Assembly (NCBI GenBank): GCA_023245415.1
Contig: JAHFKJ010000004.1
Coordinates: 2,798 to 66,797 of the forward strand
Length of the DNA: 64,000 nt
Reading direction: 5' to 3'
From: Candidatus Gottesmanbacteria bacterium
GTDB taxonomy: Bacteria; Patescibacteriota; Microgenomatia; UBA10105
Shown: piece after piece, positions 27,739 to 54,066 of the stretch
Numbering within the stretch: position 1 is the first letter of the stretch
Layout of the letters: every line of letters starts with the position of its first letter
Notes under the pieces: model-generated
Told to the model about the DNA's origin: nothing
Seen by the model: only the letters and a program-made list of their open reading frames with translations
The model's database searches: none
Program-made: the position numbers and the translations under genes

Positions 27739-27996
27739 ATGTCAACAACTGATGACACATTTTCAATTGGGACTAAAGTTAAAATTCTCAGTGATCCAGA
27801 GTCTGGACCTGGTCCATGGCCAGCTCAGCCTACGGGAACTATCATTTCCGACGCAGAAATAGTAGATGGAAGAAATGGACCTCTAAATACATACTGGGTT
27901 CAATTTGATGAACCTCAATATGATACCGACAGAAGTGGTCCTTATTCAAAATCTCAAGTATTAGAAAAGTATCTTATGGTCCAGGGACGGTCCTAA
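27739..27996 (+). CDS. hypothetical protein; C-terminus (QGRS*) encoded by repeat copy A
   Basis: 85 aa ORF; last 4 codons lie inside the 55-bp repeat. Confidence 0.4.
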   Translation: MSTTDDTFSIGTKVKILSDPESGPGPWPAQPTGTIISDAEIVDGRNGPLNTYWVQFDEPQYDTDRSGPYSKSQVLEKYLMVQGRS

Positions 27997-28039
27997 AACT
28001 AACCGTCACAACAATCTAAAAATAGCATAGTTTTATTGG
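27984..28039 (+). repeat. 55-bp island repeat, copy A (gggacggtcctaaaactaaccgtcacaacaatctaaaaatagcatagttttattgg)
   Basis: Direct sequence match to copies B-E; core GGACGGTCC palindrome plus GACGGT/ACCGTC inverted arms. Confidence 0.9.
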
Positions 28040-33516: not shown

Positions 33517-34107
33517 ATGTCAATGTCAAAACTTATTTACTCGCTAATTACCTCTCTTGATGGCTATATGGCGCCGGCGGACGAAAGTGGAACATGGGCT
33601 AAGCCAAACAAGGAAGTGGACGCTTTTATGGGTGACTTAAAACGACCAATCGGCACCTATCCATATGGACGAAAAATGTACGAGACTTTGGTCGATTGGA
33701 GTACTATGAATTTAGAGAATGAACCAGGTGTTACAGGAGACCACGTTCAAACTTGGAAGACAGCCGACAAAATAGTTTACTCGAAAACGCTCGATAAAGT
33801 ATCGAGTTCTAAAACGTTTATAAAAACGAACTTTGAGCCAGAAGATATTAAACGACGAAAACAAAGCTCGACTAGCGATCTAAGCATAGGTGGTCCTCAT
33901 ATTGCTGCTGAGGCTATAAAAGCTGGCTTTATTGACGAATATCACCAATTTATAGCACCTGTCACAATAGGGTCAGGTAATGCTTGGTTACCTGATAATG
34001 TTCGCGTAAACCTTGAACTAGTTAACCAAAAACGATTCCCGAACGGCTTTATATATCTTCGCTATCAAGTCATATACAATCATATACAAGGACGGTCCTC
34101 AAACTAG
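33517..34107 (+). CDS. dihydrofolate reductase family protein (RibD C-terminal-like), paralog C; C-terminus (QGRSSN*) encoded by repeat copy B
   Basis: LIYSLITSLDGYMAP typical RibD_C start; last 6 codons inside the 55-bp repeat. Confidence 0.75.
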   Translation: MSMSKLIYSLITSLDGYMAPADESGTWAKPNKEVDAFMGDLKRPIGTYPYGRKMYETLVDWSTMNLENEPGVTGDHVQTWKTADKIVYSKTLDKVSSSKTFIKTNFEPEDIKRRKQSSTSDLSIGGPHIAAEAIKAGFIDEYHQFIAPVTIGSGNAWLPDNVRVNLELVNQKRFPNGFIYLRYQVIYNHIQGRSSN

Positions 34108-34145
34108 TTACCACAACAACCTAAACAAAGCATAGTTTTATTAAC
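34089..34145 (+). repeat. 55-bp island repeat, copy B
   Basis: aggacggtcctcaaactagttaccacaacaacctaaacaaagcatagttttatt. Confidence 0.9.
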
Positions 34146-34211
34146 TGCCTCTTTAGTTGATATGTTCAGAAACAGAAAGATTGAAATTTGTATTGCAAAC
34201 CAAGATATAAC

Positions 34212-36243: not shown

Positions 36244-36257
36244 AGCGGGTGGTCTAG

Positions 36258-36310
36258 GGACGGTCCTCAAACTAACCTTTACAACAATCTAAATAGCATA
36301 ATTCTATTGG
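36258..36310 (+). repeat. 55-bp island repeat, copy C
   Basis: gggacggtcctcaaactaacctttacaacaatctaaatagcataattctattgg. Confidence 0.9.
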
Positions 36311-39212: not shown

Positions 39213-39283
39213 TTTACTCAAATCGATCAATAGAAACTGCATCAATGGATATTTTGTCATAAGGATATGATCCAAGGACGGTC

Positions 39284-39320
39284 CTCAAACTAATTGTTCC
39301 TAATGCGCTTGAAAGAAACT
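39284..39320 (+). repeat. 55-bp island repeat, copy D (degenerate: 18-bp core ggacggtcctcaaactaa retained, rest diverged)
   Basis: aaggacggtcctcaaactaattgttcctaatgcgcttg. Confidence 0.7.
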
Positions 39321-41238: not shown

Positions 41239-41505
41239 CTAATTTATTCCCAAAAACTCTTTTATCATCATTCGTAACGTTGTTTTTCCTTTGGTGGTTT
41301 TGAAATATTCTTCTCTGCGTTTCGCATCTTTTTCATTGCGATACGCTTCATAATGAATGAGCTCAAAGGGAATATAGGGTTTTGTAGAAAGTTCAGAACC
41401 AGAATTGTGCTCTTGTACACGTCTTTTTAGATCTGAAGTAAAACCGACGTAAATAAAATCTTTTGTTAGACTACTTAGAACATACACGTAATAGAAATTC
41501 GACAT
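41239..41505 (-). CDS. GIY-YIG nuclease family protein (short; C-terminally truncated paralog of 45791-46249)
   Basis: FYYVYVLSS...IYVGFTSDLKRRVQEHN GIY-YIG motif; nucleotides 41266-41370 ~95% identical to 46010-46115. Confidence 0.75.
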   Translation of the reverse strand: MSNFYYVYVLSSLTKDFIYVGFTSDLKRRVQEHNSGSELSTKPYIPFELIHYEAYRNEKDAKRREEYFKTTKGKTTLRMMIKEFLGIN

Positions 41506-45619: not shown

Positions 45620-45675
45620 AAGGACGGTCCTCAAACTAACCGTCACAACAATCTAAAAATAGAACAATTTCATTC
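45620..45675 (+). repeat. 55-bp island repeat, copy E
   Basis: aaggacggtcctcaaactaaccgtcacaacaatctaaaaatagaacaatttcattc. Confidence 0.9.
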
Positions 45676-45790: not shown

Positions 45791-46249
45791 TTACAATGAT
45801 TCATTCACTTCTTTAACCTGTTGTTTCGTAATCCAACCTTTTCCTTTACACGTTAAACAAATAGCTACCATGCCGGAGGTACGTACTCCACTACGGGTAA
45901 AAAACGATTTAGTCGGGGCTAATCTTGTGCCCTGACATATTGGACAAACCATTGCATCTGGAGGTTTTTGAGACAAATCCTTCTTGAAGGAAGAAAAGTA
46001 TTCCTGAAGCATCATTCGTAACGTTGTTTTTCCTTTGGTGGTTTTAAAATATTCTTCTCTGCGTTTCGCATCCTTTTCATTGCGATACGCTTCATAATGA
46101 ATGAGCTCAAAAGGAATGAAGGGCTTTGTAGAAAATTCGGAACCAGAATTGTGCTCTTGTACACGTCTTTTTAGGTCTGAAGTAAAACCGACGTAAATAA
46201 ATTCTTTCGGTATACTACTTAGAATATACACGTAATAGAAATTCGACAT
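45791..46249 (-). CDS. GIY-YIG nuclease family protein with C-terminal zinc-ribbon (CPICQ...CLTCKGKG)
   Basis: MSNFYYVYILSS...YVGFTSDLKRRVQEHN; start at Met 46249 (the table start 46279 would run into the tRNA 3' flank); lies immediately 3' of tRNA-Asn. Confidence 0.75.
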   Translation of the reverse strand: MSNFYYVYILSSIPKEFIYVGFTSDLKRRVQEHNSGSEFSTKPFIPFELIHYEAYRNEKDAKRREEYFKTTKGKTTLRMMLQEYFSSFKKDLSQKPPDAMVCPICQGTRLAPTKSFFTRSGVRTSGMVAICLTCKGKGWITKQQVKEVNESL

Positions 46250-46339
46250 GAGTAATAGTGGAGACGTGCCAGACGGCACATCCCTGCCTCACCATTCTTG
46301 GCGAAGCGATGAACCTAAGCGCCAGCGAATGGTTCGTTG

Positions 46340-46609
46340 CTCCCCCGGCAGGATTCGAACCTGCAACCTTCTTCTTACAGAAACCCTCTTGTTACCAAAA
46401 GGACTGGACTATCTCATTCCGCCAGATGCGGATCGGGTGTATAGTCTCTACACATTTATGATGCACCGCATGGTGCGTCAATTTAGCTCGGGATTGTCCA
46501 ACACCTATAAAGTGTAGGAGTCCCCCGAATTAGCCCGATTTTTCAAGTCGCCTTACGACGAAAAGCTGCCTTATGACAGGAAGCCGCTCTACCGTTGAGC
46601 TACAGGGGA
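46340..46609 (-). tRNA. tRNA-Asn(GUU) interrupted by a group I intron in the anticodon loop (between nt 35 and 36)
   Basis: Minus strand: acceptor TCCCCTG/CGGGGGA (U1-A72, discriminator G as in E. coli tRNA-Asn), D-arm GCTC-AACGGTA-GAGC, anticodon stem GCTTC/GAAGA, spliced loop CUGUUAA, T-arm GCAGG-TTCGAAT-CCTGC. Confidence 0.7.
46378..46575 (-). ncRNA. group I intron (~198 nt, no ORF)
   Basis: R-like element GTAGAGACTATAC and S-like element GAGATAGTCC (P7 GACTA/TAGTC); P1 formed by exon CTGU with IGS GCAG, with U.G at the splice site; terminal G before the 3' exon; P8-like hairpin CCGCATCTGGCGG. Confidence 0.6.
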
Positions 46610-46851
46610 ATATTTTGTTTTATAAATTGTCTACCGCGATAACTTTTTAACTGTTTTTCTCGTTTAAGAGCTTGCTGACGTGATTGGACTTGTTCTTGAT
46701 AAATAATTACCCAATCACCTTCCAATCTCGCAGTATAACTATTTTTAAATGTTTTTTCGTTATGTAAAAGTTCTCTAGTTTCTATATCTTCGGTTTGCCC
46801 TATATAAAACTTTCTATGCCTTTTGTTGTAAATTGCGTACACAATAAACAT
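46600..46851 (-). CDS. GIY-YIG nuclease family protein (third paralog, more divergent)
   Basis: MFIVYAIYNKRHRKFYIGQTEDIETRELLHN GIY-YIG motif; stop codon overlaps the tRNA 5' end by ~10 nt. Confidence 0.7.
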   Translation of the reverse strand: MFIVYAIYNKRHRKFYIGQTEDIETRELLHNEKTFKNSYTARLEGDWVIIYQEQVQSRQQALKREKQLKSYRGRQFIKQNIPL

Positions 46852-47089: not shown

Positions 47090-47118
47090 TTGACAAGTCC
47101 TGATATTGGTACTATAAT
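47090..47118 (+). promoter_or_regulatory. consensus sigma70-type promoter TTGACA-17 nt-TATAAT; predicted TSS ~47125, giving a leaderless mRNA
   Basis: TTGACA at 47090-47095 and TATAAT at 47113-47118; ATG of the RHH gene at 47126. Confidence 0.5.
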
Positions 47119-47125
47119 ACGTATT

Positions 47126-47380
47126 ATGAACACTCCTCAGACACAAATCAAAATTAACTTACCTCTTGCTCTTAAGGATTACCTCGAAAGTAAAGCTGCG
47201 AAATACGATATTCCTATTGCCGCCTATGTGAAACATTTAATACTCAACGATGTCATTGATTTGGACTATCCGACATTTAAGATTTCTGATGCGTCTGAAA
47301 CAAGCGCACGTAAAGCCTTGCGTGATAAAAAGAAAGCTAAAAAAGTGAATAATGTCGCCCAGTATTTTGAACAACTCTAA
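47126..47380 (+). CDS. ribbon-helix-helix antitoxin
   Basis: MNTPQTQIKINLPLALKDYLESKAAKYDIPIAAYVKHLI RHH pattern; start at Met 47126 given the promoter. Confidence 0.55.
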   Translation: MNTPQTQIKINLPLALKDYLESKAAKYDIPIAAYVKHLILNDVIDLDYPTFKISDASETSARKALRDKKKAKKVNNVAQYFEQL

Positions 47381-47386
47381 ACGGAC

Positions 47387-47656
47387 ATGAATTTCCAAAT
47401 ATCTCCCGATCTGGAAAAGAAATTACAGAAAATTAAAGTCAAAGATAAACAACTAACAGAAAAAGTTCAAAAGCAGCTGGAATTATTTCAGAAAAATTAC
47501 TTTCACCCTTCTCTTCGAATCCATAAATTATCAGGAAATCTTGAAAATATCTGGAGTATTGCTATCGATAAGAATTATCGCATGTTATTTTTTCTAAGTG
47601 GAAAAGAGGCTTATTTTTTCGACATCGGAACTCATGATCAGGTATACAAAAAATAA
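47387..47656 (+). CDS. RelE/YafQ-family mRNA interferase toxin
   Basis: 89 aa; HPSLRIHKLSGNLENIWSIAIDKNYRMLFFLSGKEAYFFDIGTHDQVY matches the RelE/StbE/YafQ toxin pattern. Confidence 0.7.
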   Translation: MNFQISPDLEKKLQKIKVKDKQLTEKVQKQLELFQKNYFHPSLRIHKLSGNLENIWSIAIDKNYRMLFFLSGKEAYFFDIGTHDQVYKK

Positions 47657-50484: not shown

Positions 50485-51093
50485 ATGAAAAACTTTGTTT
50501 GGATTTTCACTATATTTGTAGTCGCCATCGCCATATGCTTTTTTTCCCAAGGTTTTGTCTTTGACTCGTTGACTCCCCAGAACTACCAACTCGGAATAAT
50601 CTTCCTAGCTATTCCTGGATTTTTGCTGGCTGCAGCATTCATAAGTATCCTTGTAGCTTACGTTTGGCTTGCATTTATCAAAAAGACGGTTCACAATCCA
50701 GCCCCTCGGAACAAATTATCAAAACTTTTTGCATTAATCTTCATTTTATTTTTGTCCAGTATTGCAAGTTACGGTGCGTGGAAAGAAATCAAACAATTAT
50801 TCGATCAGCCTACGGAAATTAGCGGCAGCTGCCATTTATCCCGCGTTGAAAGAGTTATCACAGGAAGAAGGCCCGGACTAACTATAGGTAATTCTTCCTC
50901 ATATTTTATCTCCATAGACAACATCAAATACAAATCTTCATTTCCCAGATGGTTCTCTCTTTCTCCCAAACTAAGAGCATGCGAATTTGAAACTGATGGA
51001 TGTCCATGTATTTATCCGCAAATTAAAGCCATCGTTTTACCCCGAAACAAAATTATTTTGAACTATACTCCCGTTCAATATTATTCCAGGTAA
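50485..51093 (+). CDS. hypothetical membrane protein
   Basis: 202 aa, 3 TM. Confidence 0.45.
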
Positions 51094-52187
51094 TCTTTCA
51101 ATTTTTTGCTTCTCGTAGGATGTCTGAGCTTCCGCAGAGCTTTAGCTTCAATTTGACGAATGCGTTCGCGGGTGACATTAAATTCTTTGCCCACTTCTTC
51201 GAGTGTTCGCGGGCGACCATTTTCAAGTCCAAATCTTAATATTAAGACACGCTTTTCCCGATCGGTAAGTGTATTGAGCACTTCTTCCATGTGCTCCTTT
51301 AATAACTGACGCGAAGTGGAATCATACGGAGAAGGAGCTGACGTATCCTGGATAAAATCACCCAAATGCGAATCTTCTTCATCACCTACCGGCGTTTCCA
51401 ATGATGTAGGTTCCTGAGAAACTTTGATAATTTCCCGCACTTTCTCTACATCTACTTCCATGACTTTGGCTACTTCTTCCGGTAATGGTTCACGACCCAG
51501 TTCCTGCATGAGTTTACGCGAGGCACGTATAAAACGGTTGATCGTTTCCACCATGTGGACCGGAATACGAATAGTTCTGGCTTGATCGGCAATTGCCCGG
51601 GTGATCGCCTGTCTGATCCACCATGTGGCATAGGTGGAAAATTTGTAGCCTTTGCGCCAGTCATATTTTTCAACTGCACGAATAAGTCCCTGATTGCCTT
51701 CCTGGATTAAATCCAAAAGACTCATCCCCCGACCGATATATTTTTTGGCGATTGAAACTACCAGACGTAAATTCGATTCGATAAGTTTCTTTTTGGCGCG
51801 CATGTCGTTTTTTTCATAGCGCTTGGCCAAATCAACTTCCTGTTCAAAGGTAAGCAGAGGGACGCGTCCAATTTCTTTAAGATACATGCGTACCGGATCT
51901 GAAATTGCTGCATGATCCAATTTCGCGAGCGATTCGAGCTCTTTTTCCAGACTTGCCACACTCTGTGTCAATTCTTTTTCGTCTTCCTGACTGGTCGTTT
52001 CAAATACATCAATTCCCAAATTGATCAGTTTATCAAACAACTGATCCAGTTCTTTGAGATGAATTTCAGGTTTCGGATACACTTCAAGTATCTCATCCTG
52101 GGTCAAAAACCCATTGTCTTTACCTGTTTTGATAAGATCTTTGATCGAGGTGATAGTTTTGGATTTTGTTGTCATAGTTACATACAA
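51081..52187 (-). CDS. rpoD: RNA polymerase sigma-70 factor RpoD
   Basis: Regions 2-4 conserved: [51 protein letters not shown], region 4 [33 protein letters not shown]; start may be Met 52175. Confidence 0.9.
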
Positions 52188-52239
52188 AATAAAGGGAAGT
52201 ACCTTTTGTTAGAAGAGTTCCCCTATTTCGTATTATATA

Positions 52240-54003
52240 CTACATGAGTTGTTTTAGGCTAGAAGAGGTAGATTTTAACTCCGCGTTCAATTTCGTCAGC
52301 TTTGCTTCATCTTCCACTCTCTCTGCTTCATGCATATGAGTCGTTAGTTCTTTCATTATCCTGCGCAGATTGCTTTCTTTGATATGCAAAACCGTCTTTT
52401 CAAGTTCTTTTTCCCAATTTTCACGGGTGACATGAGTCAAATCACTTAAATAAGCGCTGTCAAAACCCGAGACCAATTCTTGAGGCAAAGTACTGGCAAA
52501 TTCAGCAATGATAATTTGCTCATGTTCCGACTCATAATCAATCAGCAGAATGCAGACTTTCTTAATGGCTATTTGCGTCAAATCAGACGGATCAATGTGC
52601 TCACATACGCGAACTAACGCTGAAGCCACATTTTCTGCTTGAACTATTAATGCCAGCATATGCTCTTCAAGAATCTGTTCGTGCGACTTCACAACTGGAT
52701 TCTGAACTTGAGTCGTTTTGTGCAATATTGGCTGCCGGAATTTTTTCAGAGCCTCACTCATTTTGTCTTCAGACACTGCAAGTTTAACACTCAATATTTT
52801 TATGTAATGTGCCTGAACGATCGGATTTTCGATTCGAGCAATGACAGGCAATATTTCATCGCTGATGCGTTTTTTGCCATATGGATCGTCGACCGCAAAG
52901 CGCTTACAGGCAGAACTGATCATAAAATCAAAATAGACAATTGCCTCCTGTACGGCCTTTTTCCACATGGAAGCATTTTCCCGGGCAGCTTCATCCGGAT
53001 CTTTACCAACCAGTGTTTCTACGACACGAATTTCAAATCCGGCTTTGTCAGCAATTTCTATTCCACGTCTGGTGGCTGCGTCGCCGGCTACATCCGCGTC
53101 TAGAGCCAAAACTAAACGGTCTGTAAATCGTTTTAGCAAATGAACCTGTGCATCAGTTAAGGCTGAACCTTTGATGGCAACCACATTCGTTACTCCTGAA
53201 TGATATGAAGAAATCAAATCAAATTCTCCTTCCACCACTACGCACGCATTCTGTTTACGGATCATTTCTTTAGTAATATGTATTCCATACAGAGTTTCGC
53301 CTTTGGTATAGAGCGGAGTTTCAGGAGAATTAATATATTTTGCTTCTTTAGGATAAGTTTCAAAAACTCTGCCGGAAAAAGCAATCGTTTCGCTGCGGAT
53401 ATTCTTGATCGGAAACATGATCCGGCTGCGAAAACGATCGTATACGCCAACTCTACCAGAAATTGATAATCCAGATTTAACTAGTTCATCGTTGGTGTAA
53501 CCTTTTTTACGTAAAAAAAGACTTAAGTTATCCCAGGATGTCGGCGCAAAACCGAGTTGAAATGTGGCAATAAGTAAATCAGTTATACCGCGCTGTTTTA
53601 AATACAGACGGGCGCGCTCGCCAACTCTGTGTTTGGTAAGTAAGTAATGATAATATTCCTGAGCCAAATGCTGCATTTCCAATAATTTTTCTTTTAACTC
53701 ACTCGTTGGACTTCCTGCCGGACGACTTTGCAGTTTTACTCCTGTTCTGTCAGCAAGTATTTTTAAGGCTTCGGGAAATTCAAGCCGTTCCATCTCCATT
53801 AGGAAAGTAAAGACGTCGCCTGATTTTTGACACCCAAAACATTTCCAAATATTCCGTTCAGGCGAAACCACAAATGAGGGGGTTTTTTCGCTGTGAAACG
53901 GGCATAAGCCTTTGAAGTTTCTGCCATATCGTTTCAAGGACATCGTTTCCCCGATATAATCAACCACATTCAAGCGTTCTTTTATTTGATCTAATTCATT
54001 CAT
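52240..54003 (-). CDS. dnaG: DNA primase DnaG
   Basis: CHC2 zinc finger CPFHSEKTPSFVVS...WKCFGCQKSGD, RNA polymerase domain, Toprim EGEFD; dnaG-rpoD synteny. Confidence 0.9.
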   Translation of the reverse strand: MNELDQIKERLNVVDYIGETMSLKRYGRNFKGLCPFHSEKTPSFVVSPERNIWKCFGCQKSGDVFTFLMEMERLEFPEALKILADRTGVKLQSRPAGSPTSELKEKLLEMQHLAQEYYHYLLTKHRVGERARLYLKQRGITDLLIATFQLGFAPTSWDNLSLFLRKKGYTNDELVKSGLSISGRVGVYDRFRSRIMFPIKNIRSETIAFSGRVFETYPKEAKYINSPETPLYTKGETLYGIHITKEMIRKQNACVVVEGEFDLISSYHSGVTNVVAIKGSALTDAQVHLLKRFTDRLVLALDADVAGDAATRRGIEIADKAGFEIRVVETLVGKDPDEAARENASMWKKAVQEAIVYFDFMISSACKRFAVDDPYGKKRISDEILPVIARIENPIVQAHYIKILSVKLAVSEDKMSEALKKFRQPILHKTTQVQNPVVKSHEQILEEHMLALIVQAENVASALVRVCEHIDPSDLTQIAIKKVCILLIDYESEHEQIIIAEFASTLPQELVSGFDSAYLSDLTHVTRENWEKELEKTVLHIKESNLRRIMKELTTHMHEAERVEDEAKLTKLNAELKSTSSSLKQLM

Positions 54004-54066
54004 ATGGCTAAATATGCAGGCTAATTGTAGTGTGAGTCCAAATGAATCACAAGCTAAGGTATTGAT

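Follow-up and report, generated by a model that had tools for sequence, protein, structure and literature searches.

The 64-kb stretch of Candidatus Gottesmanbacteria DNA analysed here (the window) carries, on its minus strand at 46609..46340, a 72-nt tRNA-Asn(GUU) gene whose anticodon is broken between positions 35 and 36 by a group I intron. Three GIY-YIG genes lie inside 6 kb of this region, two of them flanking the split tRNA-Asn on its own strand. The features of the locus, in window coordinates, are as follows.

47387-47656, plus strand: ORF for a ParE/YafQ/RelE-like toxin (PF24732, PF15738)
47090-47380, plus strand: small ORF with no Pfam hit
46851..46600, minus strand: GIY-YIG (PF01541) ORF of 83 aa, the stop codon of which (TAG) is made up of tRNA nucleotides 8-10
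46576..46609, minus strand: 5' exon, tRNA positions 1-35 (34 nt, terminating in CUGU; from ARAGORN on the spliced sequence), comprising the acceptor 5' strand, D arm, anticodon-stem 5' strand and loop bases C32, U33, G34 and U35
46576, minus strand: U35, the -1 uridine of the 5' splice site
46378..46575, minus strand: group I intron of 198 nt, ORF-less (RF00028; limits set by the U(-1)/omega-G rule and the tRNA fold)
46378, minus strand: terminal (omega) G of the intron
46340..46377, minus strand: 3' exon, tRNA positions 36-73 (38 nt, beginning UAAGAAG), comprising U36, A37, A38, the anticodon-stem 3' strand, variable loop, T arm, acceptor 3' strand and, as its last base, the discriminator G (46340)
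46249..45791, minus strand: GIY-YIG (PF01541) ORF of 152 aa, in which two C-terminal CxxCxGxG motifs form a zinc-finger-like tail
41505..41239, minus strand: third GIY-YIG (PF01541) copy, with 93% DNA identity over 266 bp to 46275..46010

Read on the minus strand, the intron begins with CAUAAGGCAG and ends with UUUCUG. The tRNA-Asn gene does not encode CCA, the bases after the discriminator G being CAA. Directly upstream of the GIY-YIG/tRNA cluster, and on the opposite strand, the ORFs at 47090-47380 and 47387-47656 probably constitute a type II toxin-antitoxin pair. Elsewhere in the window, an intergenic motif roughly 50 nt long, GGACGGTCCTCAAACTAACCGTCACAACAATCTAAAAATAG, recurs in at least four to five copies of the same orientation (45622-45674, 27985-28037, 36253-36303, 34088-34163 and 39270-39293, plus strand). 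It holds a 7-bp hairpin that was scored as terminator-like on the minus strand, and the one at 45622 is situated some 75 nt upstream of a minus-strand Na/Ca-exchanger gene.

Detection and limits of the intron

The first-pass annotation of this DNA had described a full tRNA cloverleaf with U1-A72 and a discriminator G, interrupted in its anticodon loop by a 198-nt insertion that ends in G, and had predicted that splicing would restore the loop CUGUUAA with anticodon GUU. To decide the matter, it had proposed a comparison with the RF00028 covariance model, a fold of P3-P9 and a comparison with the tRNA-Asn genes of related genomes. Each part of the description was borne out. When the exons were joined by hand, ARAGORN called tRNA-Asn(gtt), with U1-A72, G73 and the loop CUGUUAA; we take U1-A72 and G73 to be features of E. 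coli tRNA-Asn. The tRNA contains a G27.A43 mismatch that is common to 67 of 110 homologues.

The intron gave a full-length match (model positions 1-253) to the Rfam family RF00028 (Intron_gpI) at 46590..46385 on the minus strand, scoring 69.9 bits where the gathering score is 50. Its E-value was 1.2e-17 when a 751-nt region (46100-46850) was searched with laxer filters and 1.1e-15 when the whole window was searched in E-value mode, a scan in which it was the sole RNA family hit. Given these scores, the insert stands far beyond chance. Two routine searches of the whole 64-kb window nevertheless came back empty: ARAGORN with default settings called no tRNA, and the Rfam gathering-threshold scan with standard filters returned nothing, even though 69.9 bits exceeds the gathering score. 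A feature that both of these searches pass over is easily overlooked by routine annotation.

To place the splice sites, we enumerated every 5' site after a U and every 3' site after a G, and retained the combinations with U33 in a 7-nt loop, four or more base pairs in the anticodon stem and a product of 70-78 nt that ARAGORN recognised with a consistent anticodon. A single solution survived for the window: Asn(GUU), with a 198-nt intron at 35/36, which puts the insertion at 46575..46378 and a G at its last position. Run in intron mode, ARAGORN instead reported a 'tRNA-Asp(gtc)' of 94 nt, interrupted at 37/38 by a 177-nt intron. We rejected this call as an artefact because of its aberrant long extra arm and because the same kind of miscall has been described for a related genome (PMC13011429). 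The plus-strand ORFs that are listed across the intron were likewise set aside as antisense artefacts; the intron is too small for an ORF.

Intron structure and its conservation

A complete set of group I helices could be drawn for the intron (all on the minus strand; counts of covarying or doubly changed pairs refer to the homologues described below).

46579..46566: P1, CUGUc/gGCAG with loop AUAA, in which exon CUGU and the intron C (46579..46575) pair with the guide GGCAG (46570..46566)
46561..46548: P2, UCGUC/GGCGA with GNRA tetraloop GUAA; 5/5 pairs with double changes, the G and the final A of the loop being invariant
46538..46534 with 46437..46433: P3, UCGGG/CCCGA, enclosing the P4-P6 domain; 3/5 pairs covary
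46528..46523 with 46493..46488: P4, UCGGGG/UCCCGA
46519..46512 with 46504..46497: P5
46479..46472 with 46467..46460: P6a, GACGCACC/GGUGCAUC; 8/8 pairs covary
46446..46441 with 46412..46407: P7, GACUAU/AUAGUC, the guanosine-binding helix, pseudoknotted with P3
46431..46428 with 46422..46419: P8, CCGC/GCGG; 4/4 pairs covary
46402..46385: P9, CCUUUUG/CAAGAGG with GNRA tetraloop GUAA; 7/7 pairs with double changes
46378 (last base): 3' tail GUUUCUG after P9, ending in the omega G

P7 encloses the 3' strand of P3 together with the P8 hairpin, and at the 5' splice site P1 has a U35.G wobble. The R-like and S-like elements that had been recognised from the letters as forming P7 are intact, and the proposed pairing of CUGU with a GCAG guide, with U.G at the splice site, is present in the window and invariant in 110 of 110 homologues. 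We found no convincing P10 in the structure of the window intron. Folding P1 plus the intron without constraints gave a minimum free energy of -69.9 kcal/mol (z=-4.13), a stability reached by 0 of 200 shuffled sequences; this fold gives back P1, P4, P5, P6a, P8 and P9, and P2 approximately.

We then searched a set holding one genome per GTDB species with an exact two-block pattern, CCCGAGCTAAAN{12,42}TGTAGAGACTATA, the blocks of which correspond to the 3' strand of P4 with J6 and to the 5' strand of P7 (about 0.1 chance hits expected). In this search the compact core of the window intron recurred at no fewer than 119 loci, the genome of the window not being among those matched. At least 96 of these are tRNA-Asn(GUU) genes and at least 14 are tRNA-Asp(GUC) genes, every one interrupted at 35/36 by an intron of 174-242 nt. 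Among the matches listed, almost all records that are meaningfully named belong to Patescibacteria, mostly to the Microgenomates group (Gottesman-, Woese-, Roizman-, Davies-, Ames-, Levy-, Curtiss- and Shapirobacteria), and a few to Parcubacteria or Saccharimonadales; this tally covers the named records, many others being titled generically as 'uncultured Gammaproteobacteria'. The highest intron identity to the window among the matches listed was 80%. In one locus from another Candidatus Gottesmanbacteria genome (L007), the exons are 100% identical to those of the window and the intron is 77% identical.

The surroundings of the gene are also shared in part. Window genes at 51078-54039, about 5-8 kb from the tRNA, have homologues with up to 89% amino-acid identity in 8-kb loci around the intron (L063, L060, L065, L089 and others), many of them from Patescibacteria. 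These shared flanking homologues indicate that synteny around the split tRNA-Asn gene is partly preserved within the group. Judged from the matches of its intron, exons and flanking genes, the window very probably derives from a Patescibacterium of the Microgenomates type.

When 110 precursors were aligned with MAFFT, P1 kept its C-G, U-A, G-C and U.G pairs without variation and the fifth P1 pair covaried, whereas P2, P3, P5, P6a, P8, P9 and the tRNA stems stay paired through many pair types. The omega G is present in at least 90% of the aligned homologues. P4 is invariant, as is P7 in all homologues, but the search pattern fixed P4 and the 5' strand of P7, so that their invariance is partly built in and uninformative; the 3' strand of P7 lay outside the pattern. 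For a quantitative measure, we scored a hand-drawn structure that includes the P3/P7 pseudoknot on an alignment of 36 sequences picked for diversity. All 36 have the P1 U.G, 96.7% of the cells are paired (76.1% in shuffled alignments) and 47 of the 69 pairs have changed on both sides, with compensatory changes in P2, P3, P5, P6a, P8 and P9. The covariation score was 0.545, against 0.154 for shuffled alignments, and none of 500 shuffles matched any observed measure. As a control, sliding the 3' partners by 1-3 columns lowered pairing to 37-47%. Retention of the arrangement across about 110 species, together with the compensatory changes, implies that the RNA structure is under selection.

Proposed splicing, alternative readings and possible movement of the intron

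Taken together, these data make it very probable, as far as sequence can tell, that the locus is a functional tRNA-Asn(GUU) gene with a compact group I intron at 35/36 that lacks an ORF and splices itself. We infer that the window intron is catalytically active and, with 64 kb of the genome in view, that this may be the only tRNA-Asn gene of the genome. In the precursor, C32-U35 and the first intron base would pair with the guide GGCAG to form P1, placing U35 in the U.G wobble, and the P3-P9 core would fold with GNRA tetraloops as L2 and L9. Exogenous guanosine bound in P7 would then attack 3' of U35, after which the terminal G (46378) would take the place of the guanosine in the pocket and the free 3'-OH of U35 would attack after that G. 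Ligation of the exons would yield the loop CUGUUAA with the anticodon GUU. These steps are standard group I chemistry. The anticodon stem directly abuts P1 and, by analogy with cyanobacterial pre-tRNA-Leu, probably holds and aligns the exons; alignment of exons by the anticodon stem is established for the cyanobacterial tRNA-Leu introns.

GIY-YIG is a known homing-endonuclease fold, and for this reason we examined the association of the GIY-YIG genes with the intron. The flanking genes could encode free-standing homing endonucleases that mobilise the ORF-less intron in trans, in which case the mobile unit would consist of the tRNA, the intron and the nuclease genes. Consistent with this idea, two PF01541 ORFs bracket the tRNA on its own strand, one of them terminating inside the tRNA 5' end, and the 93% identical paralogue 5 kb away suggests, from its sequence, a recent duplication or mobility. 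However, the duplicated segment (46275..46010) excludes both the tRNA and the intron, and the 83-aa protein consists of the catalytic domain alone, without a DNA-binding domain. Moreover, a GIY-YIG ORF lies within 400 nt in 4 of 109 related intron loci, 78 of which are flanked by 600 nt or more on each side. On this count we rejected GIY-YIG as a conserved partner of the intron, and we regard its mobilisation in trans as improbable.

The position of the tRNA-Asn gene among apparently mobile GIY-YIG genes, in a view that takes in 64 kb of the genome, might also fit a decayed pseudogene, in which the tRNA would be disabled by an intron that had lost its ability to splice. Against this, every core helix is intact, the window sequence agrees with the family consensus at all invariant positions, and the same arrangement, with its compensatory changes, recurs in the roughly 110 species considered above. 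In addition, default ARAGORN and the Rfam scans found no other tRNA of any kind in the 64-kb window. We therefore consider decay highly unlikely and retain the reading as a functional gene.

Boundaries two bases upstream, giving a tRNA-Thr(UGU) with an intron at 33/34, are scarcely credible: the sequence permits them (..CCU/GU...UUUC/UGUAAG, yielding the loop CUUGUAA) and in several homologous loci the Thr(UGU) solution also comes through the splice filter, but in the window the Asn solution alone survives the U(-1)/G rules, the Thr(UGU) intron would end in C, contrary to the omega-G rule, the invariant P1 U.G sits at U35 rather than U33, and U1-A72 and G73 match what we take to be the features of E. 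coli tRNA-Asn. ARAGORN and tFind commonly report Thr(UGU) for such loci, but the sequenced spliced products of related introns show excision at 35/36 (PMC13011429).

All tRNAs with GUN anticodons share CUGU, the 4-nt target of the intron's guide, and reverse splicing or gene conversion could therefore transfer the intron between tRNA families without the need for a homing endonuclease. One metagenome-assembled genome, JADHUT01 (Candidatus Microgenomates BS150m-G53), holds both kinds of split gene:

L025:347-613, minus strand: tRNA-Asp intron locus of JADHUT01
L067:1-271, minus strand: tRNA-Asn intron locus of JADHUT01

The introns of these two loci are mutual nearest neighbours, with a distance of 0.19, compared with 0.24-0.30 to the main Asp clade, and they have P5 and P6a sequences in common. 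In 194 of 200 bootstraps, the L025 intron had an Asn intron as its nearest neighbour; with the full alignment, it was nearest to L067 of its own genome in 84 of 200. The sequences of this pair hint that the intron may have been copied between two different tRNA genes within one genome. More broadly, we put forward as a tentative possibility that the intron has been carried between tRNA families, in which case the window copy would be a snapshot of an actively spreading ribozyme lineage and not a frozen relic.

If the window gene is the only tRNA-Asn(GUU) gene of its genome, every asparagine codon would hinge on ribozyme splicing. This sole-copy reading would fit the published picture in which genome-reduced Patescibacteria keep group I introns in essential RNAs. 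There is also a practical side: because routine tRNA finders and a default Rfam scan miss the gene, the genome would falsely seem to be without tRNA-Asn, and default pipelines can silently lose this intron.

Relation to known tRNA introns

Small, ORF-less bacterial group I introns that lie in a tRNA anticodon loop and draw P1 from loop nucleotides, like the window intron, include those of Azoarcus tRNA-Ile(CAU) (subgroup IC3, about 205 nt), which is inserted after the anticodon (36/37), and of cyanobacterial tRNA-Leu(UAA) (249 nt in Nostoc PCC 7120). The Azoarcus intron presumably also has GNRA loops on P2 and P9 and a core sequence similar to that of the window, a likeness that we treat as a lead only. 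The guide sequences of the Azoarcus and cyanobacterial introns differ from that of the window, and the tRNA-Leu intron is inserted at 34/35 (PMC13011429), compared with 35/36 here.

In one respect the first-pass annotation did not hold: it knew of no group I intron in tRNA-Asn, but the class already appears in Williams 2020, according to PMC13011429, and in Nakagawa et al. (mSystems 2026, PMC13011429), who describe group I introns at 35/36 in tRNA-Asn and in tRNA-Asp genes of Patescibacteria. It was first listed as 'Asn.4Ug' in the tFind preprint of Williams 2020 (10.1101/2020.01.27.920355, as cited in PMC13011429); that preprint (bioRxiv, 10.1101/2020.01.27.920355) reports an expansion of the intron-tRNA classes from 4 to 21. 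In 95 complete Patescibacteria genomes, 15 tRNA-Asn(GUU) genes and 3 tRNA-Asp(GUC) genes have group I introns at 35/36, and tRNAscan-SE, ARAGORN and tFind miss or mis-assign such genes (PMC13011429). Structural subgroup IA accounts for 25 of the 28 introns at 35/36, and none of the Patescibacteria tRNA introns was assigned to subgroup IC (PMC13011429). Self-splicing in vitro, with exact excision at 35/36, has been demonstrated for a Saccharimonadia tRNA-Asn (GCA_016700035.1) and a Microgenomatia tRNA-Asp (GCA_001029755.1), and mutation of the terminal G to C blocked ligation (PMC13011429).

The published Patescibacteria tRNA-Asn introns agree with the window intron in host tRNA (Asn GUU), insertion site (35/36) and phylum, in P1 (CUGU with GCAG, with U.G at U35) and in the terminal G. 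Even the way in which the gene is misread recurs, GCA_016700015.1 drawing the same kind of ARAGORN miscall (Asp GUC, 37/38) as the window (PMC13011429). The window copy is not among the published sequences (PMC13011429), and at 198 nt it is shorter than the published tRNA-Asn introns with complete sequences, which span 205-312 nt (PMC13011429, Table S3). Four published tRNA-Asn introns that encode HNH proteins measure about 570-600 nt by the coordinates given for them (PMC13011429). Many of the full-length published tRNA-Asn introns, including all those from Saccharimonadia, have an extra insert between P7 and P3' that is absent in the window.

Among the published sequences, the nearest to the window intron are two compact tRNA-Asp introns from Microgenomatia, those of GCA_001029755.1 (196 nt) and GCA_030583725.1, which tie at 69% (global identity over the longer sequence, compared with the introns of PMC13011429 Table S3). 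The GCA_001029755.1 intron matches that of the window in its compact P1-P9 layout, its insertion site and its guide sequence, and the core blocks GGCUAAUUCGGGG, AAUCCCGAGCUAAAU, UAAAUGUGUAGAGACUAUA and AGAUAGUCC are common to both introns. It differs in its host tRNA, which is Asp instead of Asn, and in the sequences of P2, P5, P6a, P8 and P9. Class, insertion site and mechanism are thus already in the literature, and the window holds one more, previously undescribed copy; because class, site and activity have been published, it adds little as a discovery in itself. What the comparison extends beyond the published complete genomes is the reach of the compact variant, which is very common in Microgenomates tRNA-Asn genes, in at least 96 species representatives.
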